From Bilabrum cf. latius (taxonomy: Eukaryota), in assembly GCA_965178125.1 (NCBI GenBank), contig OZ237757.1, forward strand, positions 496,001-560,000: DNA of 64,000 nucleotides, given 5' to 3'. This document shows, piece by piece, positions 10,487 to 54,884 of this stretch. The first letter of the stretch is position 1, and each line of letters opens with the position of its first letter. The notes beneath the pieces were generated by a model, which saw only the letters and a program-made list of their open reading frames with translations, was not told where the DNA came from and ran no database searches. Both the position numbers and the translations under genes were made by a program.

Positions 10487-10629
10487 CCCCTTCGCACTGT
10501 AGCTTCACCAGGCTTGTTTGCCGGCCACCTATTCCGGAGCCACAACACAGTTGCCACGCATCGCAGTCCGGCAATTGCGGCGGTGTGCCCAGACTGTTCT
10601 CACTTCAAACTTATCAAAGAACCGATACA

Positions 10630-17240: not shown

Positions 17241-17534
17241 AATGGAGGGTTGCTTCATACGAGTCCCAATCACGTTTCCACGAAATGTCCGCATCTCTGT
17301 TATGGTCCCTGCACAATCTTGTTCAGAGCGGCAACCGCGTCAACTTAAAACGTGTATCACAGATTGTGAAAGAAGTACATCTCGGGCAACCGCAAATGCA
17401 GCGGTGTCATGGTCGCTGGGGTTTCGTGCGACCAGCGCCGGTGGTTCCGTTTTCTAGTGTTGCCGCGCACCGGCCGACCGACCGACTTTATTGAGACGCT
17501 CCATTTTTTCCGTGACTCTTGAAATCTCGGCGTC

Positions 17535-24852: not shown

Positions 24853-27800
24853 ATGAAGTGGATGCATCGCAGTAGAGAATTTCAAGCTGCTACTCTGTTT
24901 TCTGTAGTACTGTTTGCAGTGTCCGTGTCCACTGCTCAGGACATCCAGGTCTATGAGCTCTCTGGAGCAGGAGAAAGCCTCAAACTTAGAAGTGGCGCAG
25001 GATCGAGTGCAACTAACTCCTCTGCCATATTTTATGGGGGAGATATAGAGCAGGGGGGTACCACGGTCGCACGCGTGGACGAGAGTAAGCGACTCTGTGA
25101 ATTGCAGCAACTCACGCACCAAGCGCCACACGATAACTAAAGTCGAAATGAATATCCATTACTAATCCGCAGCTGGGATTGCCACTACGATGAGCTCGAG
25201 TGGTACAGCACCTCCAGTCCTTGGGACTGCGTTCGCAGCCTCGTCCACGCACGCGTACACATACGGTGGCGCCAATCCAACGAACGGAGCCGCCATGCGA
25301 GGTACATATGTAATGTCATTAGGTAAGAATTATGAATGATATGGTCCTGTGACTGAGCCAGTCCTGCTTCACCTCGACAATGCAAACACTCGCTGCTGCT
25401 GTCGCCGCTGCTGCTGCTTCTCGTCGTCACAGACACTATGGCTTGGACTAAACTGGCACCAACAGTTCTGACAAGCCCTCGGCGATACGCGGCAGCCACT
25501 GTGCTGCGCGACTGCGAGGCGTTGGGTGAGGACTGCTTGCTCGTCAACGGCGGGCAGGGAGGCGGCTCCACCATCCACGCGAGTACCGCCGTGCTCAAGC
25601 CGGACAGCACTCCTCTCGAGTGGGAAGCACCTGCGGCAGCCCAGAGCGATGCACCCGCGGGCCGTTTTGACCACTCTCTTACGGCTGATCCCACTGGCCG
25701 CATGGCCGTGCTGTTCGGGGGCCGCACTGGACCCGACGCCGAGGACGCAACCAACCACGTGTGGGCGATCAGCTCGGTGGGGTTCAGGGGATCCGGGGAT
25801 CTCGCCAACATCGCCAAGGGACAGCCCGTTTACCAGACCAGCTCTAATGACAACTCGAGATTCAAGCCAGGGCGGGCTGTGGACGGGCTGTTGTCAACCA
25901 ATGCGGACAACGAGTAGTGCTCGGCAGGCACGACTGAATCGAACCCGTCGCTGTCGGTGGACCTCGGGGGTCCAAGAGAGGTGTCTGAGATCCGCTTCTA
26001 CCGCCGCTCGGACTGGCGTCAAGACAACCCGAATGGAGTGCGGTTCTCCGTGAATAACCACCGCACGGACCCGCTGGATGGTGAGGGCACTTCTTCCTTC
26101 ACCGAGTGCAACAACCCGTACACTGGCAGGTTGCCGGTGCCTACCGTGGTCAGCTGCACCGGGGCTGTGGGACGGTATGTACATGCCTTCCTGCGTGGAT
26201 CCGACAAGCGGCTGGACGTGTGCGAGCTCATGGTCATGGGCCCGCAGCCGTGGAAGTGGAAGTCCATCAACAACGGAGAGATCGAGGTGGCCAGCGGCAA
26301 GCCCACTGCTGCCACGCAGCAGGCGTGGGATGGAACCGCCGCCAAGATCAACGACGGGACCAAGGATCAGAGCCACAGCAACTTCAAGTCGTGCACCCAC
26401 TCTGGCGGTCACTCAGGCACGCACCACTGGGTGAGGATCGATCTCGAGAAGACGTTCGACCTGACCCGGGTGAAGATCTACGACCGCGAGGACGGGTGCT
26501 GCAGGGACCGGTCCAAGCAGATCTCCGTGTGGGTGGGGAACAACAAGGAGAGGTACGACCTCAACACCGAATGCGACGAAGACGTGCCGAGCCCCATCGC
26601 CAAGACCGCAGATGTGACATGCAAGCGGACCGGCAGGTATGTCTGGTTCGTTCAGCCTAAAGTAGGCAACACCTTATCTATATGCGAAGCCGAAGTGTAC
26701 GCGATGCCTGTCCGCAACCTGCCCGTGCCCCGCTTCGGTCACGCTACCACGCAGCATCGCGGTGTGGCCTGGATCTACGGTGGCATAGACGCGGATGGAT
26801 CTGCCCTGGGAGACGTGCACGCCCTGGATCTGCGCACCTTTGAGTTCAATTCGGCCCTGAAGATCGTGGGCCAGGCCCCTGCCGCACGTGGATTCGCATC
26901 GCTGGCCCCTGCAGGCGATGGGTCTCTCATCTTGCTTGGCGGCAGGTCAGGCGCTCTCGTGTCTTCCGACCGCGTGGAGGGCGCATACAGGATGCAGCTG
27001 CCTGCCTGCAGCGACCTGAACTTGGCGGGTGTGACGGGTAAGGACTGCTTCCGTGGGTCGTGCTACTACGAGTGCTCGACCGGATTCGAGGCGACTAACC
27101 TGGTGGGTGGCCCGCCTGTGACGTGTGAGCTGACTGGGTACTACTCGGGCTTCTCTCCAGTTTGCAAGGCCGAAACAGCCGATGCACCCCCGAGTGTGTC
27201 AGCCACCATCAGCGGTCGCACTGCAACGGTGACATGGGACCCGCCGACCGACTTCGGCACGTACACGAGTGCCACCCACTACGCAGTGCGGGCGGGCGAT
27301 ACGTACGTCGGCACGGACTTCAGTGATGGCGAGCTCCCTGCTGGCTGGACGTACAGCAACTACGGCAAGAGCACCAACACAATCACGTTTGAGCCTGGCC
27401 GCGATAAGTCCGGGGGCAGTGGATACGTGAAGTGGGACATGAAGGAGCGAGGCAACTGCTGGTGGTCCGAGAACGACTGTCCCCGGATCTTCGTGCCTTG
27501 GCCAGCTGGCATCAACTTTGAATCTAGCCCAACCGAAGGTAATAAGTGGGACGTGCAAGTGAAGGTGTGGGTCGGTGATGGCGCGCTTCCACATGGATAC
27601 ACGGGGGTGGGCATCGGTCTCGTCGAGGATGACCCAGCCAAACCAGAGTACGGCCAAGTTCGCCTGTACATGATGTTCGGTCGTCTAGCTGGATCGAATA
27701 CCATGCGAGTTTATGTGGAAGAGAATGGATATAACAAGCGAGTTCGAGATATTCCTGCAGATGAGAACGGAAGATTGTAGACGCTACGCATGATGTACGA

Positions 27801-30800
27801 CCCACAGTACGAAAGGATCACGACGTTTCATCGCGGACCCAATGACAACAACTGGAGAGAGATCTTTGAAGGGGGCTGGTGGATGGGACACTTACAGAGG
27901 GGTGGTCGTGTTAGCAAGGGCAAGCTGGTCATCATGTCCAAGTCGTGGTCAGACGTGGCTCAGACCTACTTCATCGACGACATCAAGGTCTCTGTGCAGG
28001 ACTGCCCAGCGAGCGGAGTGACTCGCCTCGCACCCCTCGCTGGCCTGACCCCCGCAGGCACTCCCAGCGGCAAGCTCCGTGCAACGTCTCCCATGCTGTC
28101 CAAGGGAATCAACTACAAGTTCCAGACGGCCGCAGTGACAGAGGCTGGGCTGGGCGACTGGTCTGACTACAGCAACTGGGTAATGCCCACCAACCCGCTT
28201 GAGTTCGGGCTGGAGAACGTGGCGAGGCAAAAGCCTGTCCGAGAATGGGGCGGAATATCAAACGGAAATTGGGCTTCAAGAGCTGTGGACGGCTACAACG
28301 GAAATGGAGAAATGGGATCTGGCCGCTGCATGCACGGGGCTTGGGCAAACTAGCCAAGGATCCGTATCGACCTCGAGTCACAGTTCAAAGTGGACACCAT
28401 CCGAGTGGCCCAGCGGATCAACTACTGCTGCTACGACCGAAGCTTGGGCACTGTGGCGTACGTGGGTGATGACCCCAACAACTTCAACAATAACCAGGTA
28501 TGTGAGGGTAGTCTCAACGCTTGGGACGGCCTCATCAAACTCCTGCGGTGCAACAACGCGATTGGCCGGTACGTGTGGATTGTCACGCCACCAAAGTGGA
28601 CTTTCCTGGAGCTTTGTGAGGTGGAGGTGCTGGCAGACAACAAGTGCGACGATCGGCAGCCGGCCAACACGGCTAGCGTTGGCACATGCACGAACGCTCG
28701 CAACGGTGACATCTGCACACACTCGTGCCTCCCTGGCTATGTCGAATCATCCGGGGAGTCTACCGCGGTGTGTAGGTACGGTGACTGGACCACGGAGCCT
28801 CTCGAGTGTGTGAAGCAGTGCCCTGCTCTTCCTGCCCCTTCTGGCTCCGAATCTTGCAAGCAGGCCGTGGCAGCCGAGGACTTCGAGATTGCTGACTCTG
28901 CCATGAAGCGGTTCGCGTCATCGGACCAGGCCAAGTTCCCGCTGACCGATTACTGGCACGTGGTGGACGGCCGCATGCTGGCCATGCCTCCACCCAGCGA
29001 TGGCGAGTGCCTCATGGACAACGAGGGCATGGTGGCGCTGCTGACCGATCCTGACCCTCGCGCGCAAGACGTGGAGTACTCTGTGTCTGTGGACCTGAGA
29101 TCGGAAGATGATGCCGGGTTGGTTTTCCGGGCAGCTACTTCTGGTCTCTTCTACTATGCATCGATCGGGTTCAGGTCCGGAATCCACCGCATCGTACGGC
29201 GAACGGGGGCTGCATCCGACGACGTGGAGATCGCGACGTCGGGCGTGTCTTTGCGCCGACTGGACTCGTCCGACCCACAGGACAAGCACAAGCTGGAGGT
29301 GCTGCTGAACGGCGAGAACATGGAAGTACGGCTGGATGGAGCACGTGTCATGACGGCCTCGGATGGATCCATCGCTTCGGGTGACGCGGGACTGTGGGCG
29401 CTGGGCCCCGCCGAGTTCGATAATCTGCGTGTGGATGCGCCCTGCCTGGTGGGTGGTGGCGACTCGGTCAGTGGATGCAGGCAGCTCTTCTACCAGGACG
29501 AGTGCGGGTTCACCTGCCGCAAGGGCTTCGATTCCAACGGGACCTCTGTGTCGAGGTGCATGGCCAATGGGGTCCTCCAGCAGCCCCAGGGCCCGCCGCA
29601 GTGCCTCATCCGGCCCCCTGTGGCAGTGGACCAGGAGCGCAACGTGACCGAGAATTCGCCCAGGAACACAGCCGTGGGGGATCCCGTCCGCGCCTCACTT
29701 GAGGCGGACGAGCAGATGGAGTTCAGCATCGTGGCAGGCGACGCCATGGAGGCCTTCCGCATCGGGCTGTGCGACGGGCAGCTGCGGGTGTTCGACCAGA
29801 GCCAGCTGGACTATGAGGTCAAGGAGGAGTTTGAACTGACCATTCGGATCGGCGTGAATGGGTTCTCGGCTTACACGGACATCAACGTCACGGTGCACGT
29901 GCAGGACGTGAACGAGCCCCCCACGCTGCCCGCCCAGAGCTTTGTAGTGCAGGAGAACTGCCAACCCATGACGCCGGTCGGGTAGCCGCTCGTGGGGCTG
30001 GCAGATGATCCCGAGGATGATACGCTGACCTTCCATCTGGACTTTGATGGAACTGACGGGATGTTGCTGCTGGACGAGACCTCGGGTCAACTGTCGCTCA
30101 ACTTCTCATCTCCACAGCGGCCCACAGGTACTGGTCACCCCGTCGATTTCGAGAATGGCCCCGCCTCCGGGTCCTTCTTGGCCATCGTGCAGGTGGAGGA
30201 CACCGTGGGAAACACGGCCTCCAGCTTCATCACCATGGCTCTCAACGACACCAACGATGCCCCCGAGCTAGACACCGTCAGTGGTGCAGGAGCTTCGAGT
30301 CTGCCTCAGTCCCAGGTCCTCACCGTGGATGAGTACGTGGCTGTGAGCATGGACGGGGCTCCCATGGATCCTTCGGTGCAGGCCGTGGACCAGGACCAGG
30401 GCCTTTACACTTCCGAACTGTCCTTCCGATTCACGAGCAAGGGTGCCAGCGGCTCTTCCCCGCTGCAGGGGACCCTCATCCGGCAGCAGGCCTCGGACAG
30501 CACTCCACAGGAAACCACTGGTGTCGTCTTGCAGGAGGGTGGGCAGGACCTGTTCACGATTGATGCTCACAGGGGCAATGTGTCTGTCACAGCCGTGCCC
30601 AGTCCTCAGTGGTCCATCACCAGCGACTACTCGCCGTACCTGTCTTTGGACGCTTCCACACAGGGCGTGCTGGTGCGGGCAGAGTACGTGTTGGAAGTGG
30701 AGGTGCGAGACAGGTTCGGAGCCACGGCCACGAGCAATGTGCGCTTTGTGATCGCCGCAAATGACTCGAGCATTCCTGTGATCCGCGAGGTGGCCTGCGA

Positions 30801-33800
30801 GGGTGATGGCATGCCCACGCGGGGTGGGGTGGTGTGCAACTTTACTGGCACTGGACTGGGGTCTGCAAGCAACACCGTGGGTGCATGGGTGACTCGCGCA
30901 AACCCACAGGGTGGCACGGGCCGCCTGGATTTCACCGGCTGCTCGATCGTGAAGGACTCTGTGATGATCCAGTGCATGAGTCCCGAAGGGTATGGCCGTG
31001 GATTTGACGTGCACGTGCAGGCGCAGGGACAGGAGGCCTTCAAGGCATCTCAGCTGCGGCTCAACTTCAGAGACCCCACCGTGACCGCTGTGAGCTAGAG
31101 CGCGCAGGCACTGGCCACCGAGGGAGGTACGGAGGTGGTGCTGTCAGGCGAGAACCTGGGGCCTGCGGGCAAGCAGACGGTGCGGTACAGCGATGGTCGT
31201 GGCGGGCAGCTGACCTGCCAGGTGAGAAGCTCGCTTGAGATCGGCGAGACGAGCCATGACACGGTGCGCTGCATCACGCAGGAGGGCTCGGGCAGCAACC
31301 TGCAGTGGATGATGTCCATCAACGAGGAAGCCGAGCTCACTGTCATGTCCATGCGTGCAGATGGGCAGGCCGATGCCGGGGCAGGGGCTGGTGAGGGTAC
31401 TGTAGCGGACCTGTTCGGATTCTCGTATGCACTCCCGCAGATCACAGGCGTGGAGGGACTGTCCAGCTCGCAGGACGTGAGGCAGCTATCCACGGCCGGC
31501 GGTGAGACCGTGGTGGTGCGAGGCAATAACTTCGGACCTGCTTCGGAAGCCGTGCGGGTGTGGCTGACGTATGCCCCGGAAAGCCCCGTGACCAGTATGG
31601 GAGCGGCGCTGGGCGGATACATGTACGAGATGGCCAGCTGCAGCAAGCCCGAGACAGGGGCCATGGCGCACAAACTGCTGCACTGCACAATGCCTGCGGG
31701 AGTGGGGCGGGGCCTGGTGTTGAGCATGTCCGTGAACGGCCAGTCGCAGGACGGCAGCACCTGCTATGCCCCTACTGTGGACGAGGGCAGCGATGCCGTG
31801 GATCAGCTGGACAGGGACCTGGTGTGTCCCAATTCCACGATCGCGTTCGTATCCTATGCGCCACCTCGCGTGGACCGCGTGCTGGGCGCAGACGGATCTG
31901 ACACGCGTGGCGGGCAGTCCTTCACGCTGGTGGGCGCGGGTTTCGGGCCCATGGAGCTGACAAATCTGGGCAGCGTGTCGTCTGTACTGTACGGTCCTGC
32001 AGACGCGGGCAACCTCAGGTATGATGCCACTGCCACCTGCAGGGTGTCGCAGGCCGATGTGGAGATCGAGTGCAGCACGCTGCCAGGGACCGGCAAGGAC
32101 CTGCAATTCAACCTGGCCGTGGCTGGGCAGGCCTCCACTAGCGATGTGGTACAGACCACGCATGCCTACGCGCAGCCCGTGCTGGCCACATTCGAGGGCG
32201 ACGGTGCGTCTGGTGCGGAGACTCCCGGTGGGCAGGTGGTGGCGCTGCACGGCAACAACTTCGGGCCCATGGGCGCCGGAATCGACACGCCCCTCAACGC
32301 GACGTACGACCTGTCCGTGGCGGGCGTGGGCTCAACCACGTTCCAGGCCGTGGACTGCCAGCTCACGGTGGCACATATCACGATCGAGTGCAGGACAGCA
32401 GAGGGGGCTGGCCGTGCCCTGGCCTGGACCGTGGTCGTGGACTCGCAGCCCAGCCGCAGCCCCACCACGAACTACGAGGTGCCTGTGGTGACCGCGGTGG
32501 TGCGGCCAGGGACCAGCGCAGGAGCGCGCGTGTCCGATGCAGACGTGGACGGCGGTGAGACGTTGGAGATTCACGGCACTGGCTTTGGGTCGCCTGACTT
32601 GGTGCTGGTGGACGAGGAGACGGGGGCTGTGTCGAACGCGCTGGAGAGCATCACGTACGGTCCCACAGGCACGGAATATACGCCGGTGTCTGTGACACAT
32701 GTGTCGCACACGCTGATCCAGATCGTGACGGAGCCGGGATGGGCCATGAATGCGTTCTTCCGCGTGGTGGTGGCCGGGCAGTCCAGCAGCACGAGCCCGC
32801 CCGCCTCGACCGACGCCACATTCGACTTCGCCAAGCCTTTGCTGGTGTCCCTGGCGCCGTCGGCAGTCAGCAGCACGTACTCGCCCGAAGACATCCCGCA
32901 GATCGTGAGGCTGACCACGCGGAATGTGCCCCTGAGGGACCGTCTGTCCAGGCCCGTGGTGCTGTTTGGGGGTCAGGTGCGGCAACCGACGTCTGCCATT
33001 CGCAATCAGGATGGCAGCCAGACCATCGCATTCACCCTCCCCGAGCATGGAGGCGGTTTCGCCATCCCAGTGAGGGTGGGGGTGGCCCCGGTCCGCGAGG
33101 ACGCCTCCCAGTCCGCGCCCAACCCGGAGTCGCTGTCTCTGCTGCAGGACCCGGCCACCATCTTCGCCTACCAGGCTCCCAGCATCGACCGACTCGTGGT
33201 GACCCGGCCTGCATGGACACAGCCGGGTTACGTGTCAGGCGCGAACACCCCGGCAGAGCAAAACTGCACCTTCGGGCCAGGGGATCCGTTCACATGCACC
33301 GACACGGACGTGCTGCAGGTGCTCATCATCGGGACTGGATTCTCGGATCCAAGGGGCTTCCGCCAGGACGGCGACGCGAGGGGGCTGCTGCGGGCGGACG
33401 TGTCTATGCTGCCTCTGCTGCGGTACCCGCTGGTGGTGCGGTCGCACACGCACAACCGTATCTTGGCCTACACTAACGAGCAGACAGGATCTGTGCAAGT
33501 GCAGGTGAGCGCCACGCTGCCTCAGTCGCTGGTGGACCAGGGCATGACCAGCGCGCTGGGCGTGGCAGTGGACACGATGGAGCAGCGCACCGACAGCGAG
33601 ACCTGGCAGCTGCTGGCGCCCTCCATCGCGGCGCTGCAGGGCACCACAACCGGACTGCCCACGGCCGGCCAACAGCCCGAAGATGGCACGCCGGCGGACG
33701 GCAACGGCATCACGATCGTGGTGGGCGGACTGGAGACGACCAAGAAGGTGAGGGTGCTGGTGGGGCCCAGCGCCAGCTCGGTGACTGCTTGCCGGGTGTG

Positions 33801-36800
33801 GTCGCTGCTGGAGAGCCGCTGGCTGGAAGCGAGTGCGAGTGGGTCCGACATCCAAACGCACGTGATCGACGTGATCGACGCCGCGGCTAACCAGCAGGGC
33901 ACGCAGGCCGTGTACGAGGTGTCGTTCCTGATCCCCGAGGCGCCCGCCACGCCCGAGCCGCTGGACGACATCCGGGTGTTTGTGGACCGCGATGGGGCGC
34001 TGTCCAGTGGCGACGACTCGTTCGCATATGCCGAGCCGTACGTGGCAGCTGTGGACGTGTGGATGCCGGCGGACGGCGCGTCCGGAGACCAGCCCACGGA
34101 CGCGAGTCCCGTGGAGTCCCACTGGCAGCGGGCCTGGGTTGCGCTGGATGCGAGCGATGTCCGGGTGCCCACTCGCGGTGGCTGGATCCGGGTGCGGGGC
34201 CAGGACCTGACGCAGTGTCCGCTGGTACGACTGGGCGACGGGCACATGAGCACGTGCACGCAAGGCATCGTCGCGTACGGACACCCGGACAGTGCCTCTT
34301 CTGCCAATCGACTGGCCTGCCAGCCAGCTGTTGCAGGTGGCAGCACGCCGTCGCTGCACGAGTGCTTCATCATCCCCGTGCCCGCGGGTGAGGGCGACGG
34401 TCTGCAGTACAACGACACGATGACCGGCTTCGTGCTGGATGTAGAGGCGGGGCTGCAGTCCATGGTACTGGCGGAGGACGTGGAAGACGTGCAGGCGGGA
34501 GGCGTCACGGACGGCGCTGACGGGATCGTGCCGAGGCGGCCCGGCGACGGTCCCACGGCGGTGCGGCTGGCCAACGTGCGGCGCGGCCTGCTGCAGTACT
34601 CGCACATCCGGCCTAGTATTGTCAGCGTGCAGCCCGCGGCGCAGACCGACTCGGTGCCGACCGCGGGCGGCGTGACTATGCTGGTGCGTGGAGCGAACTT
34701 CGGTGAGACCCCGAGCATGCGGCAGGCCCAAGCCGATGGCATCGACATGTTCATCCGCGTGGAGCTGGGCGTGCCTAGCAACAATGCAGGGGCCGTGCAG
34801 GCGTTTGGTCGAGCGGTGGAGTGGGTGGACTGTGCGAATGCAACCCGAGTGTCGCACGAGGTGGTGGAGTGCGTGCTGCCCGAAGGAGCCGGGTCCAACG
34901 TGGCGGCTCGAGTGACGGTGGCCGGGCTGGTGGGCGAGGCTGGCGGCATGGTGACGTATGACGCGCCCGTGGTGACCGCCGTGGCTCTGCATGGGCACTC
35001 GTCATCCTTCATGTCAGCGCTGGACGAGATGGATGACCTGTTCGAGGACGACGCCGACCCCACTGGGCTGCTGCGGGCTCAGGCCGTGTGGCTAGACACT
35101 GGCTTGGTCCGGCATGTGCCAAACGCCACGGTGCGCGCCACCATCGGACCGGTGGTACAGTTCGCATCTTTGTCGAGCGGAAGCCTGCAGGTGACAGGGG
35201 CTCCCACCAGAGGAGGTCGTCCCAACGGCCTGGACATGATGTACCCAGCAGCGGCCCACGTGACGCTGTTCGGACAGAACCTGGGCCGCAGGGGGGCGGT
35301 GGGTGATCCCCAGCTGTGCGTGTTCCTGGCGCAGTCCACGCGCAACACGGGTCTTGCTCTGGTGTGCGACGGCATGGAGGGCTTCCCCGGAGAGGGCGAG
35401 GTGCCGTCGTGGACGGTGGTGGTACACACGCACGACCGCATCACGTTCGAGCTGCCCGAGGGCGTGGGCCAGAAGGATCTGCAGGTGTCTGTGGGCGGGC
35501 GCACGCTTGTGGTGCCCACCACGCAGGACCAGCCCCGCCTACTGTATGCCCCCCCAAGCATCAGGGAAGTGCTGCCCGTTGTGCCCGCCAACGGCCCCAC
35601 CATCGGTGGGTACCTAGTGACGGTGCATGGAGCCAACTTCGGTCCCAAGCAGCGCAACGTCACATCGTTGGGTCAAGCCGTGGAGCTGGCCCAGGGTCGC
35701 TTTGTGTCCCCGCTGCCTCTGTCCATGGCATCCGCCGTGCCCACGTCATACCTGGTGGTGGACTTCTACCGGTCGTGCATCACGGACGCCACGTCGCCCG
35801 AGGGCCTGAAGCCCCAGCTGGGACGCACAGCAGGGTGCGACTATGTGATCGAAGACCGCGACCATGACTTCGTGACCTTCCGTGTGCCCGAGGGGATCGG
35901 GGCGAGCAGGGACGTGGCAGTGGAGGTCGTGGACGTGGCGGTGGCCGAGCTCCGAGCAAGCAGCGGCGCCGTGGGCTTCTCGGGCGTGTAGCGATCCGAG
36001 TCTCGCGGGGCCTTCTCCTACGATGCGCCGGAGATCGACCGCACGGATCCCACGCGCGTGTACCTCGAGTCTGGCCAGGACCTGGAGCAGTACCGGGACG
36101 TGCTGCTAGAGGTGCAGCGGCGTGTAGAGGAGCTGTTCGCCGGCGTCAGTAGCACTGGCACTGCCGACGTTGATGCCATCCTGCACGCGGCCCAGCAGCC
36201 TCTGTCGGAGTTCATCAACAGCGGCGAGCAGGCTTGGGGACAGGCGCTGGATGAGCTGCGACAAGAGGCCGGGTCCTCGCCGCGGCAGGCAGACGCGCTG
36301 CAGGGCCCCACCAAGATGGTGTACATGTTCGGCCGCAACTTCGGCAACCCTGCACTGGCACTGCGGTAGAACTGGAGCGATGCAGAGCGCTTCGTGGGTG
36401 CGTCCATCGGGAACGTGACCTGCCTGGAGACCAACCGCGGCAGACAAGCCGTGACGGATGACCCGCTGGAAGACCCGGCATCCACGCAGGTGGAGTGCGA
36501 GATCGAGGCACTGACAGTGGGGTACAAGAACGTGACGCTGCGAGTGGCAGGCCAGGTGGGCATGCTGGACGCCAGAGAGGGAGTGAGCGGGGTGCACTTC
36601 GTGTGCGCGCCTGGCCAGTTCGGGTTGGACGGGGAGTTCTGCCTGCCATGCCCGCAAGGAGCGGACTGCCCGGGCTACGACACGGATGTGCGGCGCAGCA
36701 TGCCGCCGCGTCCGCAGAGCGGCTTCTACAACCTCAACTCCTCTGACGGTCTCAGCGGCAACATGACCGACGCTGAGTGCCCCAGCCGCAAGCAGGTGCC

Positions 36801-39132: not shown

Positions 39133-39611
39133 TCGCATGTGATCTGGTGCCACATCCATTGCGCTGCATGTTTCTTGTGCCGCACTACGTCTAGCTCACA
39201 CTGCCATCTACACTTCTCATTGTGAATCTAAATGAGGGCCGTATCCGTGGCAGGCTTGACATGGGTGGCAAAATTGTTGTGATTAGCCTCGCGGTGAAAC
39301 GCTGCATTATCAGTTTTAACGTTGCTTTGCTCTTGTTTTATTAGCCTTACGTTGTATATTCTATATTAATATTTGTCATTCAATTCAAATATTCAGGCAA
39401 ATGGCCTCGGGCCGTCACCAGCATCCCGCTGCGGGCTGCGACTCCCCGACACGAGAAAATGACACATCAAACCTAGGATCTCGGCTGCTCCACAACGCTG
39501 TACGCGCTATTTACTCTGCAACACTTATGCGTTTGGGGCTCTGCCACTCTTTTTCGAATTAAGGAAGGTAAGTGTATTTACAATTTGTTGGCGTTCAAGC
39601 TGGTCGCACTA

Positions 39612-39802
39612 GTTGGTGAGGCAAGCAAGGTCTCAGAGATCCGAGGATTGAGGTTGCGCGCTGGGCACAGTACCCGCTCGAGACGCAGGATCAGATGCAA
39701 CGTAGCGACGGGGAGGAGAGAGAGCGCGTTTAAGGAGGCCAGGTTAGGGATGAAGAGCAAGAGCGGCGGCTAGGGATGGGCGAGGGGGGGGGGGGGATGA
39801 GG
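39612..39802 (+). repeat. Degenerate dispersed repeat, copy 1 (decayed coding fragment ending in poly-G)
   Basis: gttggtgaggcaagcaaggtctcagagat..attgaggttgcgcgctgggcacagtacccgctcgag..gcggcggc..poly-G-atgag aligns with 56904-57222. Confidence 0.75.
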
Positions 39803-40568
39803 GCGGAGTAGTGGAGGAGGAGATGAGTGATGGGGTCATCTGGTTGATACGGCGGATTAGAATGGAGAGGCACAAGGTGGGCAGGTGGGGTGAAGGCGTA
39901 TGCGTGTCGAGTGACTTGGATCAGGGAATCGGATCACCCGACCGCATGCAGATTAGGAATTTGGGAGGTCACAGTTAGACTTGAGCGGCAATCTAGCCGT
40001 GTGCTATTCGGGTGCTGAAGGGCAGCACTCGCCAGTTTTTGCTATTTTACCTCTCGCTCAACTATGGATCCAATGGCAGCATCGCGCTGAGCGTCGGACT
40101 GTTGCGACCGCCTGAGGACGGCCCAGGCTGGCAAAGAAACGCTCCCAATCCAAATATAACTCCGACGACACCGAACAGTAAATGGCATCGGAAACCTGGA
40201 CAGGCTATCCGGATGTTTGTGTTCTTGTTTTCGGTGGCGGATCCATTTCAGTCCGATGATTTCTTGCATTTGTGGAATAGGGAGCAGGGGGGGTCACTTT
40301 ATGGGACCTATCCTGATCTAGTCGGAAAAAACTTGGTAAAAAGTACAAATTAACAAAGCAAAAATGGTTTTCAAATCGTGAAGCAGGAAAGAGCCAGTCT
40401 AACTCCGCCCAGACTAAACAGCCTCGTTGTTTTGCCATCAACAGCAAGGATCTCCAAAGAACACTGTAGGATTCAGCTGGGGGATCAAGCCTAGGCAAGA
40501 ACTGCTATCATCTATCACTAACACATGCAAATTCATTTAGTCGATGAACTAAGAGGAATGTAATAGGA

Positions 40569-43500: not shown

Positions 43501-46500
43501 GCCGCGTGCAGGATGGCATCAACGTCAGCAGTGCCAGTGCCACTGACGCCGGCGAACAGCTCCTCGACACGCCGCTGCACCTCTAGCAACACCTCCCGGT
43601 ACTGCTCCAGGTCCTGGCCAGACTCGAGGTACACGCGCGTGGGATCCGTGCGGTCGATCTCCGGCGCATCGTAGGAGAAGGCCCCGCGAGACTCGGATCG
43701 CTGCACGCCCGAGAAGCCCACGGCGCCGCTGCTTGCCCGGAGCTCGGCCACCGCCACGTCCACGACCTCCACTGCCACGTCCCTGCTCGCCCCGATCCCC
43801 TCGGGCACACGGAAGGTCACGAAGTCATGGTCGCGGTCTTCGATCACATAGTCGCACCCTGCTGTGCGTCCCAGCTGGGGCTTCAGACCCTCGGGAGACG
43901 TGGCATCTGTGATGCACGACCGGTAGAAGTCCACCACCAGGTATGACGTGGGCACGGCGGATGCCATGGACAGAGGCAGCGGGGACACAAAGCGACCCTG
44001 GGCCAGCTCCACGGCTTGACCCAACGATGAGACGTTGTGCTGCTTGGGACCGAAGTTGGCTCCATGCACCGTCACTAGGTACCCACCGATGGTGGGGCCG
44101 TTGGCGGGCACAACGGGCAGCACTTCCCTGATGCTTGGGGGGGCATACAGTAGGCGGGGCTGGTCCTGCGGGGTGGGCACCACAAGCGTGCGCCCGCCCA
44201 CAGACACCTGCAGATCCTTCTGGCCCACGCCCTCGGGCAGCTCGAACGTGATGCGGTCGTGCGTGTGCACCACCACCGTCCATGCCGGCACCTCGCCCTC
44301 TCCGGGGAAGCCCTCCATGCCGTCGCACACCAGAGAAAGACCCGTGTTGCGCGTGGACTGCGCCAGGAACACGCACAGCTGGGGATCACCCACCGCCCCC
44401 CTGCGGCCCAGGTTCTGACCGAACAGCGTCACGTGGGCCGCTGCTGGGTACATCATGTCCAGGCCGTTGGGACGACCTCCTCTGGTGGGAGCCCCGGTCA
44501 CCTGCAGACTTCCAGTCGATAAAGATGCGAACTGTACCACCGGTCCGATGGTGGCGCGCACCGTGGCGTTTGGCACATGCCGGACCAAGCCAGTATCTAG
44601 CCACACGGCCTGAGCCCGCAGTAGCCCAGTGGGGTCGGCGTCGTCCTCGAACAGGTCATCCATCTCGTCCAGCGCTGACATGAAGGATGACGAGTGCCCA
44701 TGCAGAGCCACGGCGGTCACCACGGGCGCGTCATACGTCACCATGCCGCCAGCCTCGCCCACCAGCCCGGCCACCGTCACTCGAGCCGCCACGTTGGACC
44801 CGGCTCCTTCGGGCAGCATGCACTCCACCACCTCGTGCGACACTCGGGTTGCATTCGCACAGTCCACCCACTCCACCGCTCGACCGAACGCCTGCACGGC
44901 CCCTGCATTGTTGCTGGGCACGCCCAGCTCCACGCGGATGAACATGTCGATGCCATCGGCTTGGATCTGCCGCATGCTCGGGGTCTCGCCGAAGTTCGCT
45001 CCACGCACCAGCATAGTCACGCCGCCTGCGGTCGGCACCGAGTCGGTCTGCGCCGCGGGCTGCACGCTGACAATACTAGGCCGGATGTGCGAGTACTGCA
45101 GCAGGCCGCGCCGCACGTTGGCCAGCCGCACCGCCGTGGGACCGTCACCGGGCCGCCTTGGCACGATCCCGTCACCGCCGTCCGTGACACCTCCCACCTG
45201 GACGTCTTCCACATCCTCCGCCAGTACCATGGACTGCAGCCCCGCCTCCACATCCAGCACGAAGCCGGTCATCGTGTCGTTGTACTGCAGACCGTCGCCC
45301 TCACCCGCAGGCACGGGGATGATGAAGCACTCGTGCAGCGACGGCGTGCTGCCACCTGCAACAGCTGGCTGGCAGGCCAGTCGATTGACAGAAGAGGCAC
45401 TGTCCGGGTGTCCGTACGCGACGATGCCTTGCGTGCACGTGCTCATGTGCCCGTCGCCCAGTCGTACCAGCGGACACTGCGTCAGGTCCTGGCCCCGCAC
45501 CCGGATCCAGCCACCGCGAGTGGGCACCCGGACATCGCTCGCATCCAGCGCAACCCAGGCCCGCTGCCAGTGGGACTCCACGGGACTCGCGTCCGTGGGC
45601 TGGTCTCCGGACGCGCCGTCCGCCGGCATCCACACGTCCACAGCTGCCACGTACGGCTCGGCATATGCGAACGAGTCGTCGCCACTGGACAGCGCCCCAT
45701 CGCGGTCCACAAACACCCGGATGTCGTCCAGCGGCTCGGGCGTGGCGGGCGCCTCGGGGATCAGGAACGACACCTCGTACACGGCCTGCGTGCCCTGCTG
45801 GTTAGCCGCGGCGTCGATCACGTCAATCACGTGCGTTTGGATGTCGGACCCACTCGCACTCGCTTCCAGCCAGCGGCTCTCCAGCAGCGACCACACCCGG
45901 CAAGCAGTCACCGAGCTGGCGCTGGGCCCCACCAGCACCCTCACCTTCTTGGTCGTCTCCAGTCCGCCCACCACGATCGTGATGCCGTTGCCGTCCGCCG
46001 GCGTGCCATCTTCGGGCTGTTGGCCGGCCGTGGGCAGTCCGGTTGTGGTGCCCTGCAGCGCCGCGATGGAGGGCGCCAGCAGCTGCCAGGTCTCGCTGTC
46101 GGCGCGCTGCTCCATCGTGTCCACTGCCACGCCCAGCGCGCTCGTCATGCCCTGGTCCACCAACGACTGGGGCAGCGTGGCGCTCACCTGCACTTGTACA
46201 GATCCTGTCTGCTCGTTGGTGTAGGCCAAGATACGGTTGTGCGTGTGCGACCGCACCACAAGCGGATACCGCAGCAGAGGCAGCATAGACACGTCCGCCC
46301 GCAGCAGCCCCCTCGCGTCGCCGTCCTGGCGGAAGCCCCTTGGATCTGAGAATCCAGTCCCGATGATGAGCACCTGCAGCACGTCCGTGTCACTGCACGT
46401 GAACGGATCCCCTGGCCCGAAGGTGCAGTTTTGCTCTGCCGGGGTGTTCGCGCCTGACACGTAGCCCGGCTGTGTCCATGCAGGCCGGGTCACCACGAGT

Positions 46501-49500
46501 CGGTCGATGCTGGGAGCCTGGTAGGCGAAGATGGTGGCCGGGTCCTGCAGCAGAGACAGCGACTCCGGGTTGGGCGCGGACTGGGAGGCGTCCTCGCGGA
46601 CTGGGGCTACCCCCACCCTCACTGGGATGGCGAAACCGCCTCCATGCTCGGGGAGCGTAAATGCGATGGTCTGGCTGCCATCCTGATTGCGAATGGCAGA
46701 CGTCGGCTGCCGCACCTGACCCCCAAACAGCACCACGGGCCTGGACAGGCGATCCCTGAGGGGCACATTCCGCGTGGTCAGCCTCACGATCTGCGGGATG
46801 TCCTCGGGCGAGTGCGTGCTGCTGACTGCCGACGGCGCCATGGACACCAGTAAAGGCTTGGCGAAGTCGAATGTGGCGTCGGTCGAGGCGGGCGGGCTCG
46901 TGCTGCTGGACTGCCCGGCCACCACCACGCGGAAGAACGCATTCACGGCCCATCCCGGCTCCGTCACGATCTGGATCAGCGTGTGGGACACATGTGTCAC
47001 AGACACCGGCGTATATTCCGTGCCTGTGGGACCGTATGTGATGCTCTCCAGCGCGTTCGACACAGCCCCTGTCTCCTCGTCCACCAGCACCAAGTCAGGC
47101 GACCCGAAGCCAGTGCCGTGGATCTCCAACGTCTCGCCGCCGTCCACGTCTGCATCGGACACGCGCGCTCCTGCGCTGGTCCCTGGCCGCACCACCGCGG
47201 TCACCGCAGGCACCTCGTAGTTCGTGGTGGGGCTGCGGCTGGGCTGCGAGTCCACGACCACGGTCCAGGCCAGGGCACGACCGGCCCCCTGTGCTGTCCT
47301 GCACTCGATCGTGACGTGCGCCACCGTGAGCTGGCAGTCCACGGCCTGGAACGTGGTGGAGCCCACGCCCGCCACGGACAGGTCGTACGTCGCGTTGAGG
47401 GGCGTGTCGATTCCGGCGCCCATGGGCCCGAAGTTGTTGCCGTGCAGCACCACCACCTGCCCGCCGGGAGTCTCCGCACCAGACGCACCGTCGCCCTCGA
47501 ATGTGGCCAGCACGGGCTGCGCGTAGGCATGCGTGGTCTGTACCACATCGCTAGTGGACGCCTGCCCAGCCACGGCCAGGTTGAATTGCAGGTCCTTGCC
47601 AGTCCCTGGCAGCGTGCTGCACTCGATCTCCACATCGGCCTGCGACACCCTGCAGGTGGTAGTAGCATCATACCTAAGGTTGCCCGCGTCTGCAGGACCG
47701 TACAGCACCGACGACACGCTGCCCAGATTGGTCAGCTCCATGGGCCCGAAACCCGCGCCCACCAGCGTGAAGGACTGCCCGCCACGCGTGTCAGATCCGT
47801 CTGCGCCCAGCACGCGGTCCACGCGAGGTGGCGCATAGGATACGAACGCGATCGTGGTATTGGGACACACCAGGTCCCTGTCCAGCTAATCCACGGCATC
47901 GCTGCCCTCGTCCACAGTGGCAGCATAGCAGGTGCTGCCGTCTTGCGACTGGCCGTTCACAGACATGCTCAACACCAGGCCCCGCCCCACTCCCGCAGGC
48001 ATTGTGCAGTGCAGCAGTTTGTGCGCCATGGCCCCTGTCTCGGGCTTGCTGCAGCTGGCCATCTCGTACATGTATCCGCCCAGCGCCGCTCCCATACTGG
48101 TCACGGGGCTTTCCGGGGCATACGTCAGCCACACCCGCACGGCTTCCGAAGCAGGTCCGAAGTTATTGCCTCGCACCACCACGGTCTCACCGCCGGCCGT
48201 GGATAGCTGCCTCACGTCCTGCGAGCTGGACAGTCCCTCCACGCCTGTGATCTGCGGGAGTGCATACGAGAATCCGAACAGGTCCGCTTCAGTACCCTCA
48301 CCAGCCCCTGCCCCGGCATCGGCCTGCCCATCTGCACGCATGGACATGACAGTGAGCTCGGCCTCCTCGTTGATGGACATCATCCACTGCAGGTTGCTGC
48401 CCGAGCCCTCCTGCGTCATGCAGCGCACCGTGTCATGGCTCGTCTCGCCGGTCTCAAGCGAGCTGCTCACCTGGCAAGTCAGCTGCCCGCCTCGACCATC
48501 GCTGTACCGCACCGTCTGCTTGCCTGCAGGCCCCAGGTTCTCGCCTGACAGCACCACCTCCGTGCCTCCCTCGGTGGCCAGCGCCTGCGCGCTCTAGCTC
48601 ACAGCGGTCACGGTGGGGTCTCTGAAGTTGAGCCGCAGCTGAGATGCCTTGAAGGCCTCTTGTCCCTGCGCCTGCACGTGCACGTCAAATTCCCGGCCAT
48701 ATCCTTCGGGACTCATGCACTGGATCATCACAGAGTCCTTCACGATCGAGCAGCCGGTGAAATCCAGGCGGTCCGTGCCACCCTGTGGGTTTGTGCGAGT
48801 CACCCATGCACCCACGGTGTTGCTTGAAGACCCCAGTCCAGTGCCAGTAAAATTGCACACCACCCCACCCCGCGTGGGCATGCCGTCACCCTCGCAGGCC
48901 GCCTCGCGGATCACAGGAATGCTCGAGTCATTTGCAGCGATCACAAAGCGCACATCGCTCGTGGCCGTGGCTCCGAACCTGTCTCGCACCTCCACTTCCA
49001 ACACGTACTCTGCCCGCACCAGCACGCCCTGTGTGGACGCGTCCAAAGACAGGTACGGCGAGTAGTCGCTGGTGATTGACCACTGAGGACTGGGCACGGC
49101 TGTGACAGACACATTGCCCCTGTGGGCATCAATCGTGAACAGGTCCTGCCCACCCTCCTGCAAGACGACACCAGTGGTTTCCTGTGGAGTGCTGTCCGAG
49201 GCCTGCTGCCGGATGAGGGTCCCCTGCAGCGGGGAAGAGCCGCTGGCACCCTTGCTCGTGAATCGGAAGGACAGTTCGGAAGTGTAAAGGCCCTGGTCCT
49301 GGTCCACGGCCTGCACCGAAGGATCCATGGGAGCCCCGTCCATGCTCACAGCCACGTACTCATCCACGGTGAGGACCTGGGACTGAGGCAGACTCGAAGC
49401 TCCTGCACCACTGACGGTGTCTAGCTCGGGGGCATCGTTGGTGTCGTTGAGAGCCATGGTGATGAAGCTGGAGGCCGTGTTTCCCACGGTGTCCTCCACC

Positions 49501-52500
49501 TGCACAATGGCCAGGAAGGACCCGGAGGCGGGGCCATTCTCGAAATCGACGGGGTGACCAGTGCCTGTGGGCCGCTGTGGAGACGAGAAGTTGAGCGACA
49601 GTTGACCCGAGGTCTCGTCCAGCAGCAACATCCCGTCAGTTCCGTCAAAGTCCAGATGGAAGGTCAGCGCATCATCCTCGGGATCATCTGCCAGCCCCAC
49701 GAGCGGCTACCCGACCGGCGTCATGGGTTGGCAGTTCTCCTGCACAACAAAGCTCTGGGCGGGCAGCGTGGGAGGCTCGTTCACGTCCTGCACGTACACC
49801 GTGACGTTTATGTCGGTGTAGGCCGAGAACCCATTCACGCCGATCCGAATGGTCAGTTCAAACTCCTCCTTGACCTCATAGTCCAGCTGGCTCTGGTCGA
49901 ACACCCGCAGCTGCCCGTCGCACAGCCCGATGCGGAAGGCCTCCATGGCATCACCCGCCACGATGCTGAACTCCATCTGCTCGTCCGCCTCCAGTGAGGC
50001 GCGGACGGGATCCCCCACTGCTGTGTTCCTGGGCGAATTCTCGGTCACGTTGCGCTCCTGGTCCACAGCCACAGGGGGCCGGATGAGGCACTGCGGCGGG
50101 CCCTGGGGCTGCTGGAGGGCCCCATTGGCCATGCACCTCGACACGGAGGTCCCGTTGGAATCGAAGCCCTTGCGGCAGGTGAACCCGCACTCGTCCTGGT
50201 AGAAGAGCTGCCTGCATCCACTGACCGAGTCGCCACCGCCCACCAGGCAGGGCGCATCCACACGCAGGTTGTCGAACTCGGCGGGGCCCAGCGCCCACAG
50301 TCCCGCGTCGCCCGAAGCGATGGATCCATCCGAGGCCGTCATGACACGTGCTCCATCCAGCCGTACTTCCATGTCCTCACCGTTCAGCAGCACCTCCAGC
50401 TTGTGCTTGTCCTGTGGGTCGGACGAGTCCAGCCGGCGCAGAGACACGCCCGATGTCGCGATCTCCACGTCGTCGGATGCAGCCCCCGTTCGTCGTACGA
50501 TGCGGTGGATCCCGGACCTGAACCCGATCGATGCATAGTAAAAGAGACCAGGAGTGGCTGCCCGGAAAACCAACCCGGCATCATCTTCCGATCTCAGGTC
50601 CACAGACACAGAGTACTCCACGTCTTGCGCGCGAGGGTCAGGATCGGTCAGCAGCGCCACCATGCCCTCGTTGTCCATGAGGCACTCGCCATCGCTCGGT
50701 GGAGGCATGGCCAGCATGCGGCCGTCCACCACGTGCCAGTAGTCGGTCAGCGGGAACTTGGCCTGGTCCGATGACGCAAACCGCTTCATGGCAGAGTCGG
50801 CAATCTCAAAGTCCTCGGCTGCCACGGCCTGCTTGCAGGATTCGGAGCCAGAAGGGGCGGGAAGAGCGGGGCACTGCTTCACACACTCGAGAGGCTCCGT
50901 GGTCCAGTCGCCATACCGGCAAACAGCAGTAGATTCCCCGGATGATTCGACATAGCCAGGGAGGCACGAGTGAGTGCAGATGTCACCGTTGCGAGCATTC
51001 GTGCATGTACCAACGCTAGCCGTGTTGGCCGGCTGCCGATCGTCGCACTTGTTGTCTGCCAGCACCTAGACCTCACAAAGCTCCAGAAAAGTCCACTTTG
51101 GCGGCGTGACAATCCACACGTACCGGCCAATTGCGTTGCATTTCAGAAGTCTGGTTAGACCTGACCACGCGTTGAGGCTGCCTTCACACAGCTTGTTGTT
51201 GTTGAAGTTGTTGGGGTCATCACCCACGTACGCCACAGTGCCAAAGCTTCTTTCATAGCAGCAGTCCCTCCGCTGGTACACCCGGATTGTGTCCACCTTG
51301 TACTTGGCCTCGAGGTCGATGCGGATCCTGGGCTAGTATGCCCAAGCCCCGTGCATGCAGCGGCCAGATCTCATCGCTCCATTTCCATTGTAGCCGTCCA
51401 CGGCTTTCGAAGCCCAATACCTGTTGTATATTCCACCCCATTCTCGGACAGGCTTTTGCCTAGCCACGTTCTCCAGCCCGAACTCAAGCGGGTTGGTGGG
51501 CACTACCCAGTTGCTGTAGTCAGACCAGTCGCCCAGCCCAGCCTCTGTCACTGCGGCCGTCTGGAACTTGTAGTTGATCCCCTTGGACAGCATGGGAGAC
51601 GTTGCACGGAGCTTGCCGCTGGGAGTGCCTGTGGGGGTGAGGCCAGCGAGGGGTGCGAGGCGAGTCACTCCGCTCGCTGGGCAGTCCTGCACAGAGACCT
51701 TGATGTCGTCGATGTAAAAAACCTAGTCTGCGTTCGTCCAAGACTTCGCAAAGATCACCAGCTTGCCTTTGCTGACCCTGCCGCCCCTTCGCATGTGTCC
51801 CATCCAGAACCCGCCTTCATACAGGTCCCTCCAGTTGTTGTCGTTAGGGCCTCGGTAGAATGCCGTTACACGATCCTCTCCTGGGTCGTACTTCATTCGC
51901 AGAGTGAGTTCCCTGTCGTTGGCACCAGCACCAATAGTTTTGGTTCGCTGGCCATATCCATTCTGCTCGAAGTATACCCGCATGTTATTCTGTCCTGCTA
52001 CACGACCATACATCATGTACACACGCAGCTGCCCATACTCGGGCATTGAAGGGTTATCCTCGACGAGACCGATGCCGAGGCCTGCATATCCGTGCGGCAA
52101 CGCGCCATCACCAACCCACACCTTAACTTGCACGTCCCACATGTTGCCTTTGAATCCACTAGTCGCGTCATCGATGCCAGCTGGCCAAGGCACGAAGATC
52201 CGGGGACAGTCGTTCTCGGACCACCAGCAGTTGCCTCGCTCCTTCATGTCCCACTTCACGTACCCGCTGCCCCCGGACTTATCGCGACCAGGCTCAAACG
52301 TGATCGTGTTGGTGCTCTTGCCGTAGTTGCTGTACGTCCAGCCGGCAGGGAGCTCGCCGTCACTGAAGTCCGTGCCAACGTACGTATCGCCCGCCCGCAC
52401 TGCGTAGTGGGTGGCACTCGTGTACGTGCCGAAGTCGGTCGGCGGGTCCCATGTCACCGTTGCAGTGCGACCGCTGATGGTGGCTGACACACTCGTGGGC

Positions 52501-54884
52501 GCATCGGCTGTTTCGGCCTTGCAAACTGGAGAGAAGCCCGAGTAGTACCCAGTCAGCTCGCACGTCACAGGCGGGCCACCCGCCGGGTTGGCCACCTCGA
52601 ATCCGTTCGAGCACTCGTAGTAGCACGACCCGCGGAAGCAGTCCTTACTCGTCACTCCCGCTAAGTTCAGATCGCTGCAGGCAGGCAGCTGCATCCTGTA
52701 TGCGCCCTCCACGCGGTCGGAAGATACGAGAGCGCCCGACCTGCCGCCAAGCAAGATGAGAGACCCATCGCCTGCAGGGGCCAGCGATGCGAATCCACGT
52801 GCGGCGGGGGCCTGGCCCACGATTTTCAGGGCCCCGTTGAACTCAAAGGTGCGCAGATCCAGGGCGTGCACGTCTCCCAGGGCAGATCCATCCGCATCGA
52901 TGCCACCGTAGATCCAGGCAACGCCGCGATGCTGCGTGGCGGCGTGACCGAAGCGGGGCACGGGCAGGTTGCGGACAGGCATCGCGTACACTTCGGCTTC
53001 GCAAATGGTCAAGGTGTTGCCTGCTTTAGGCTGAACGAACCAGACATACCTGCCGGTCCGCTTGCAGGTCACATCGGCGGTCTTCGCGATGGGACTCGGC
53101 ACGTCTCCGTCGCATTCGGTGTTGAGGTCGTACCTCTCCTTGTTGTTCCCCACCCACACGGAGATCTGCTTGGATCGGTCCCTGCAGCACCCGTCCTCGC
53201 GGTCGTAGATCTTCACCCGGGTCAGGTCGAACGTCTTCTCGAGATCGATCCTCACCCAGTGGTGCGTGCCTGAGTGACCGCCCGAGTGGGTGCACGACTT
53301 GAAGCGGCTGTGGCTCTGATCCTTGGTTCCATCGTTGATCTTGGCGGCAGTTCCTTCCCACGCCTGCTGCGTGGCAGCGGTGGGCTTGCCGCTGGCCACC
53401 TCGATCTCTCCGTTGTTGATGGACTTCCACTTCCACGGCTGCGGGCCCATGACCATGAGCTCGCACACGTCCAGCCGCTTGTCGGCTCCACGCAGGAAGG
53501 CATGTACATACCGTCCCACAGCCCCGGTGCAGGTGACCACGGTAGGCACCGGCAACCTGCCAGTGTACGGGTTGTTGCACTCGGTGAAGGAAGAAGTGCC
53601 CTCACCATCCAGCGGGTCCGTGCGGTGGTTATTCACGGAGAACCGCACTCCATTCGGGTTGTCTGGACGCCAGTCCGAGCGGCGGTAGAAGCGGATCTCA
53701 GACACCTCTCTTGGACCCCCGAGGTCCACCGACAGCGACGGGTTCGATTCAGTCTTGCCTCCAGCGCACTGCTCGTTGGTTGACACCGTCGACAGTAGCC
53801 CGTCCACAGCCCGCTCTGGCTTGAATCTCGAGTTGCCATTAGAGCTGGTCTGGTACACGGGCTGTCCCTTGGCGATGTTGGCGAGATCCCCGGATCCCCT
53901 GAACCCCACCGAGCTGATCGCCCACACGTGGTTGGTTGCGTCCTCGGCGTCGGGTCCAGTGCGGCCCCCGAACAGCACGGCCATGCGGCCAGTGGGGTCA
54001 GCCGTGAGAGAGTGGTCGAAGCGGCCCGCGGGTGCATCGCTCTGGGCTGCCGCGGGTGCTTCCCACTCGAGAGGAGTGCTGTCGGGCTTGAGCACGGCGG
54101 TACTCGCGTGGATGGTGGAGCCGTCTCCCTACCCGCCGTTGACGAGCAAGCAGTCCTCACCCAACGCCTCGCAGTCGCGCAGCACAGTGGCTGCCGCGTA
54201 TCGCCGAGGGCTCGTCAGAACTGTTGGATTTATGGTTTCCCATGTTAATGAGGCTGCGGGGTCCAATCGGATGCTTGAAATCTACCACTGGCTAAATGAA
54301 GTGAGTTGGATCCACTGACGCGTCTCGACTCCGGGGATACTATCTTCGCATACGTGTTCAAATATTGGGCTAAGCCAAACAGTAAAACCAAATATACACT
54401 TTCTCACATGTTGGCATTTTGTAGGTAGTCCGCGTTGCAGCTGACCTGGCGCTATTTTCTCCGCCGTATGCATACACGACAGTCTTGCCTTGTGCGACTG
54501 CAACCCCGTTTTTCGAGGGTTGCACAGACGAACCAAAGTCTTGAGTGCGAGCGACACCGTCTGCAAGGAAATTATTGGAAATTTCAATTATGGAGGCGGG
54601 CTTTATGGCTCCCGTTCGGGCGGGCTAGCATGCAATGACCTTGGCACTGGTGTTTTGGTTCGTGCACCCAACAGTGGTCACTCACGCTGGTCAACCTCAA
54701 TGAGAGAAGCTGCTCCAGAGCCAGCATCTCCACCAAAGAACATCGCTGAAGCATTTGTAGACACCGATCTTGCTCCACTTCGTAGCTTTAGTGCCGATCC
54801 TGAAGCAGAAAGCTCGAACACAGCCACATCAGCGGCACGCGTCAACGCGAAGAGCACTAGGATTAGGGAAAACTCGGATAGCAT
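40569..54884 (-). CDS. Giant multidomain surface receptor/adhesin, copy B, ~4678 aa (exons 54884-54686, 54560-54408, 54253-40569)
   Basis: Inverted paralogue of copy A with the same two phase-1 intron positions. Nine in-frame TAGs. Ends at TGA 40569-40571. Confidence 0.9.
40587..54227 (-). repeat. Right arm of the ~13.7-kb inverted repeat
   Basis: Same evidence as the left arm. The arms are separated by a ~1.45-kb spacer that is not part of the repeat. Confidence 0.95.

Follow-up and report, generated by a model that had tools for sequence, protein, structure and literature searches.

The DNA analysed here, a 64,000-nucleotide stretch of contig OZ237757.1 (positions 496,001 to 560,000; hereafter the window), carries two giant convergent paralogues, A and B, and this report concerns the TAG codons that lie in frame within them and within their neighbours. 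Translated with the standard code, the window (G+C ~62%) breaks up into frames of moderate length; once TAG counts as a residue, a few very long frames emerge, the summed length of frames of at least 300 codons rising from 18,631 to 34,451 codons and the two longest reaching 4,564 and 4,672 codons. Readthrough of TAA brings little gain, and readthrough of TGA only multiplies spurious frames. A and B form the arms of a tail-to-tail inverted repeat, with 98% complementarity across 10.5 kb close to the centre and 82–97% farther out (Table 1). The protein domains of A comprise Kelch, three F5/8 type C, Sushi, cadherin and many IPT/TIG, together with a C-terminal multi-pass membrane region, and by this predicted make-up A is a giant membrane or surface protein gene. 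A's ATG is not retained in B, where L-T-W is aligned to A's M-A-W, and on the minus strand between 54150 and 54260 an out-of-frame ATG follows the acceptor CCGCAG/CC, with the splice acceptor at ~54253. The start of B is therefore probably in an upstream exon, unless B is translated differently; the tenth TAG of its long frame (54282–54284) lies 5′ of the acceptor and is thus noncoding.

A global protein-guided codon alignment of A with B covers 4,560 codons, with 4,399 identical residues (96.5%) and 4,130 identical codons. The indels number three, of 1, 1 and 3 codons, all in frame; there are no frameshifts, and both copies are free of in-frame TAA and TGA up to the terminal TGA. The in-frame TAGs, 8 in A and 9 coding ones in B, occupy 12 alignment columns: five pair TAG with CAG, one pairs TAG with GAG and one TAG with CTC, and five are TAG in both copies. 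An earlier annotation made from the letters of the window (the sequence-only reading) had listed the same columns, with TAG twice in A and three times in B at the five exchanges, and had described ~14 kb of each copy as free of TAA, TGA and frameshifts; the alignment bears it out in each of these points and at every coordinate.

The two copies differ at 430 codons, 269 of them silently and 161 with a change of amino acid (counting TAG as Gln), and the single-base differences (n = 359) fall mostly at codon position 3 (260, against 59 at position 1 and 40 at position 2). This third-position excess, with a dN/dS of 0.20 (Nei–Gojobori; 0.26 in the diverged codons 1–1039 and 0.11 in the remainder), points to purifying selection on both copies. 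CAG/TAG is a first-position C/T transition, a type that has just one further silent class, Leu CTG/TTG, and the two differ between the copies equally often, at 5/180 sites (2.8%) and 7/246 sites (2.8%), respectively. Replacement first-position C/T changes (His/Tyr, Pro/Ser, Arg/Cys, Arg/Trp and Leu/Phe, pooled) occur at 3/1,108 sites (0.27%), a rate tenfold below that of CAG/TAG (Fisher p = 0.002), and CAA/TAA and CGA/TGA differ at 0/17 and 0/23. CAG/TAG therefore acts as a synonymous change, as the sequence-only reading had proposed, and the conserved Gln columns described below agree. The 214 differences within the 98% arm group into 45 clusters, the pattern expected of patchy gene conversion, so the five CAG/TAG exchanges may not be five independent recent mutations. 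The divergence is graded along the arms, with dS of 0.24 in the outer 3 kb (the gene 5′ ends) and 0.06 in the inner 10.5 kb. A and B would both be functional copies of one giant gene for a surface protein, set as a tail-to-tail palindrome, partly homogenized by gene conversion, between which C and T at the first base of CAG/TAG would interchange silently.

Since TAG is a standard-code stop and CAG to TAG the commonest nonsense mutation, A and B might instead be decaying pseudogenes, or their TAGs might be assembly errors or be edited to CAG in RNA; we consider this whole group of explanations extremely improbable. Decay had already been argued against by the sequence-only reading, and it sits poorly with a dN/dS of 0.20, with indels that are all in frame, with the absence of frameshifts, TAA and TGA, and with the presence of in-frame TAG in all 11 gene models of the window (A, B and nine others).

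Alignment columns of homologues indicate which amino acid TAG is likely to specify. In ethanolamine-phosphate cytidylyltransferase (ECT), the TAG at residue 17 of exon 2 (LR-TAG-ARA) stands opposite Q in 114/114 homologues with a residue there (from an alignment of the best 120 of 1,467 matches, 6 of them gapped at this site) and in human PCYT2. The TAG at residue 88 of the CBP20 homologue faces Q in 116/118 homologues (of the best 150 matches, those covering the site in one match; the other 32 were set aside), and Q again in human and yeast CBP20. For A and B we used the 13 of 82 homologues with the widest BLASTP coverage of A: residue 3644 of A, a shared TAG, is Q in 11 of them, including P0123 from Cafeteria. 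In CYFIP, TAG 2202 is opposite Q of human CYFIP1, but in a weak stretch of 1.2 bits; the MACPF protein has no PDB match. Gln is by far the best single reading of TAG.

Environmental relatives extend the exchange beyond the window. A metagenome scan with ECT returned 21 loci, of which L001 and L002, from two samples and 98.7% identical to one another, carry an ECT 70–72% identical to that of the window; it is open only with TAG as sense and terminates at TGA. L001 has TAG opposite window CAG at 2/2 alignable sites, and TAG17 and TAG379 of the window ECT lie opposite CAG in L001, making the exchange bidirectional. Together with the five sites from A and B, these four bring to 9/11 the unshared TAGs within the clade that face CAG; one faces GAG. 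A more distant relative, L003, has two introns and no TAG in ~250 codons and is uninformative. Next to ECT, L001 and L002 have 153-codon frames ended by TAA; these are unconvincing as genes, and the window lacks a counterpart to them. Existing protein predictions are cut at TAG: P0013, the gene call for the L001 ECT, retains 327 residues of a ~580-codon gene, and P0331, with 66 residues and 100% identity, is CBP20 of the window organism, ending just ahead of TAG170. Standard-code annotation thus fragments the proteomes of this clade.

Across the window, the 11 gene models (identified through Pfam and PDB matches) hold 17,495 codons, with 65 TAG, 590 CAG, 129 CAA, and no TAA or TGA; TAG makes up 8.3% of Gln codons, or 3.7 per 1,000 codons. 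The two other frames of the same models contain 166 TAG (83 per frame), 81 TAA and 662 TGA. In-frame TAG is thus about as frequent as out-of-frame TAG, whereas TAA and TGA are missing in frame, showing that TAG is unavoided and the other two are excluded. Nine models end at TGA and one (TrmO) at TAA, with one open at the window edge; no additional convincing gene ends emerged from a scan of the window's unannotated DNA. A TAG with two meanings, sense within genes and stop at their ends as in Condylostoma or karyorelict ciliates, would suit the pseudouridine synthase, where the last sense codon is TAG and the stop TGA follows immediately (8105–8110, minus strand), so that TAG could be the real stop. 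We find this highly improbable: 0/10 gene ends require TAG, TAGs are spread across whole gene bodies, and ECT continues beyond its last TAG for ~110 codons through a conserved C-terminal helix, also present in L001 and L002, to a TGA that coincides with the C-terminus of its homologues.

The window separates UAG from UAA. If the ratio of TAA to CAA (129) equalled that of TAG to CAG (65:590), 14.2 in-frame TAA would be expected; none was seen (P(0) = 7e-7), which argues for a UAG-only change with UAA no Gln codon. That TAA is not treated as TAG goes beyond the sequence-only reading. In NCBI table 6, UAA and UAG both encode Gln, as in many ciliates, hexamitid diplomonads, some ulvophyte green algae, oxymonads and aphelids. 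Such a code shares with the window UAG as Gln and UGA as stop, and would have TAA missing from genes here only through GC richness; the TGA at 9/10 assignable gene ends is compatible with it, and nuclear codes in the reported cases nearly always shift UAA and UAG together (PMC5304391). We nevertheless judge it very unlikely, given the shortfall of TAA set against 129 CAA, the abundance of TAA elsewhere (81 out of frame, and 160 in the window's unannotated DNA) and the TrmO frame, which terminates at TAA ahead of DNA that is not coding-like. UAA is probably still a terminator.

Table 1. Paralogues A and B, their TAG columns and the other annotated features of the window (UTR, untranslated region)
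Feature	Position	Strand	Remarks
Paralogue A	25438..39132	+	single 13,695-base exon, 4,564 codons + TGA, 8 in-frame TAG
Paralogue B	40569..54248	-	convergent with A, 4,559 aligned codons + TGA, 9 coding TAG
Spacer between convergent A/B stop codons	39133..40568	.	palindrome centre, ~1.4 kb
A CAG / B TAG	A 25555-25557 / B 54129-54131	+ / -	codon alignment
A TAG / B CAG	A 25915-25917 / B 53769-53771	+ / -	codon alignment
A TAG / B CTC	A 27778-27780 / B 51906-51908	+ / -	most diverged patch
A CAG / B TAG	A 27961-27963 / B 51723-51725	+ / -	codon alignment
TAG shared	A 28351-28353 / B 51333-51335	+ / -	codon alignment
A GAG / B TAG	A 28624-28626 / B 51066-51068	+ / -	LCEV[E/Q]V motif
TAG shared	A 29983-29985 / B 49707-49709	+ / -	codon alignment; X1 contig 29947-31730 without differences
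TAG shared	A 31096-31098 / B 48594-48596	+ / -	codon alignment; X1 contig
A CAG / B TAG	A 31804-31806 / B 47886-47888	+ / -	codon alignment; T allele in reads
A TAG / B CAG	A 35989-35991 / B 43701-43703	+ / -	X1 contig 34546-36098, its 3 differences elsewhere
TAG shared	A 36367-36369 / B 43323-43325	+ / -	Q in 11/13 homologues, including Cafeteria P0123
TAG shared	A 38224-38226 / B 41466-41468	+ / -	codon alignment
5′-UTR intron of A	25085..25172	+	88-base GT..AG stretch skipped by contig of run X5
Intron upstream of A	25321..25430	+	110-base GT..AG, skipped by same X5 contig; ends 7 bases 5′ of ATG
CBP20 (cap-binding protein) homologue	2368..3771	-	3 in-frame TAG, ends TGA
Ethanolamine-phosphate cytidylyltransferase (ECT)	5876..7924	-	exon 1 7924-7548, intron 7547-7422 (126 bases), exon 2 7421-5876; 4 TAG; ends TGA
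RluA-type pseudouridine synthase, long tail	8105..10486	-	6 TAG; ends TGA
ABC-F ATPase	10585..13413	+	3 TAG, ends TGA
983-codon frame, no Pfam family	14343..17294	-	8 TAG, ends TGA
CYFIP (SCAR/WAVE complex) homologue	17535..24599	+	8 TAG, ends TGA
TrmO tRNA methyltransferase homologue	55112..56377	+	1 TAG; ends TAA
1,238-codon frame, no Pfam family	57704..61420	-	11 TAG, ends TGA
MACPF-domain protein	62054..64000	+	5 TAG; continues past window end

Parts of A are present in thirteen sequencing runs from seven studies, none of them listed as RNA, and we compared 19200–39199 of the window with four of these (X1, X3, X5 and X7) as contigs; the best-covering run may be the assembly's own source. 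Contigs with zero differences extend over 19200–25503 in X1, 19200–24702 in X5 (5,503 bases) and 19200–22056 in X7, and contain six, six and three of the CYFIP TAGs, respectively (in X5, those at 19410, 19800, 19914, 24138, 24216 and 24417). The same TAGs thus stand unchanged in contigs of runs from three studies, which speaks against both assembly error and editing. Within A, X1 contigs are unchanged at the TAGs at 29983, 31096, 35989 and 36367. Read support for the TAG alleles, on which the sequence-only reading would stand or fall, is found in part: reads at 31804 carry B's T in X1 (38.9/101.6), X5 (380/380) and X7 (2/2), and not in X3. X5 skips the two GT..AG stretches directly upstream of A's ATG and leaves the genome sequence exactly at the AG acceptor upstream of B. 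From these skips, from contigs that end at gene borders and from very unequal depths, we infer that X5 is RNA, in which case the TAGs are unedited in mRNA; its spliced-looking contig retains the six CYFIP TAGs without a difference over 5,503 bases. Between 27972 and 36825 the high-depth contigs of X5 (267–380) resemble B, sharing its two codon deletions and its T at 31804. They differ from A by 2.8%, above the 2.0% of B vs A, and the A-identical contig has a depth of 38.7, which points either to a large excess of B in this run or to the presence of an additional copy or strain.

Taken together, UAG has very likely been reassigned from stop to Gln genome-wide, and across the clade formed with its metagenomic relatives, with UGA the usual terminator and UAA not Gln, in a GC-rich, intron-poor and most likely stramenopile eukaryote. 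Known codes (PMC5304391) suggest how this would work: a tRNA-Gln with anticodon CUA would pair with UAG and not with UAA, and eRF1 would be without grip on UAG. No tRNA gene was found in the window, and eRF1 is not among its genes.

Several observations weigh against this reading or leave parts of it thinly informed. Most TAG columns say little about the amino acid: 10 of the 12 in A and B are variable or gapped among the 13 homologues, those of ABC-F are variable (S/A/R/T/Q; E/D/G; mostly gaps), and for the pseudouridine synthase the PDB alignment is variable or gapped. As a terminator, TAA ends only TrmO among the family-supported frames, plus an unassigned frame at 1237–2205; the TrmO PDB match stops ahead of TAG 371, leaving the C-terminus uninformed. 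In the runs, A/B sites other than 31804 rest on contigs of X1, which is perhaps the assembly's own source, and X5 is labelled 'probably DNA'. The taxon placement is based on 8 organism-named matches of 82. Two sites, lastly, favour an acidic residue: TAG at CBP20 residue 170 (3262–3264) faces E in 87 and D in 23 of 118 homologues (110/118) and Q in none, and the B TAG at 51066 faces GAG in A and E in 9/13 homologues. TAG might accordingly be Glu, or ambiguous between Gln and Glu, which we hold to be most unlikely. E occurs in 0/114 homologues at ECT residue 17 and 0/118 at CBP20 residue 88, CAG is opposite 9/11 of the unshared TAGs of the clade, and CAG/GAG exchanges between A and B number just 2. 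Both acidic sites, moreover, tolerate other residues (non-acidic in 8/118 at CBP20 residue 170; M at the equivalent of B 51066 in A's first F5/8C repeat), and these two TAGs are best read as probable E-to-Q replacements under a Gln code.

The lineage is suggested by the membrane region of A, whose named relatives (8/82 matches) come from Cafeteria roenbergensis (6) and Phytophthora (2), with no ciliate or metamonad among them. The Cafeteria protein (FNF28_00400, P0123; 4,574 aa) matches A in length class and in its set of Pfam domains (Kelch, F5/8 type C, cadherin and TIG), and it is collinear with A, with identities of 37% (902 C-terminal residues) and 26% (2,660 residues). Unlike A, it is predicted as an uninterrupted frame, and was thus called under a standard-type code. 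Homologue searches with ECT and ABC-F gave no taxonomic signal (ABC-F identity at most 36%). With moderate confidence, these protein likenesses place the source as a heterotrophic stramenopile near bicosoecids. Bicosoecids are giant-virus hosts; a scan of viral contigs found no relative of the membrane region of A. Identical DNA over 2.9 to 6.3 kb occurs in runs labelled as three different organisms from three studies, and small shares of window DNA occur in runs labelled as algae and protist metagenomes; the organism may be a companion in cultures of other protists.

The window is nuclear, eukaryotic DNA: its genes are eukaryotic and contain spliceosomal introns, and the region is intron-poor. 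Canonical short GT..AG introns are those of ECT and the two upstream of A (Table 1). The ECT intron has a length that is a multiple of three but contains TGA, and its removal restores the HYGHSNALRQ motif of the homologues. The same code table, with TAG as Gln and TAA and TGA as stops, has reportedly been described for crAss-like phages, but these are viruses, in contrast to a cellular nuclear genome with introns, CYFIP, CBP20 and ECT. Of the two frames in Table 1 outside any Pfam family, the 983-codon one has a C-terminal membrane helix and Pro-rich linkers.

Among nuclear codes, few are reported to split UAG from UAA: those of one fornicate, one rhizarian (UAG as Leu), one green alga (Scotinosphaera, UAG as Ser) and some ciliates (PMC11687900, PMC5304391). 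UAG alone encodes Gln in Iotanema spirale, Hartmannula sinica, Trochilia petrani and Protocruzia tuzeti, and elsewhere in these accounts UAA and UAG shift together (PMC11687900, PMC5304391). Iotanema spirale (Panek et al. 2017, PMC5304391) resembles the window in assigning UAG alone to Gln and keeping UAA from coding sequence; it uses UAA and UGA as stops, and its eRF1 carries T32G within the GTS motif. It differs as an anaerobic fornicate metamonad with UAA as primary stop, whereas TGA ends 9/10 genes here. The three others, ciliates that use table 15 with UAA and UGA as stops (PMC11687900), likewise have UAG as Gln at conserved Gln positions. Since Cafeteria and Phytophthora supply all the named relatives of the window's giant-protein family, an origin independent of these ciliates is, on protein similarity, very probable. 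A full-text literature search, with subscription journals mostly uncovered, found no nuclear code change in a stramenopile or bicosoecid. The code of the window is probably a case of the rare table 15 type with an independent origin in a new supergroup. More tentatively, it is possible, though we would not count on it, that a clade of heterotrophic stramenopiles independently changed UAG to Gln without UAA, as the first nuclear code change in the supergroup, and that this clade is present in several environmental samples and mis-annotated in public data.

For this organism and its relatives, standard-code gene callers cut proteins at each TAG, so that the proteome stands fragmented in databases and metagenomic relatives go unrecognized. 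More broadly, codes in which UAG and UAA part company are relevant to the question of why the pair nearly always shifts together. An anticodon-CUA tRNA reads UAG without UAA, and eRF1 changes such as T32G have been proposed to release UAG (PMC5304391); a GC-rich, TGA-terminating and probably stramenopile case is an independent replicate for testing this model of tRNA(CUA) plus eRF1. The same case would allow a test of whether GC pressure, by making TAA scarce, uncouples UAA from UAG.

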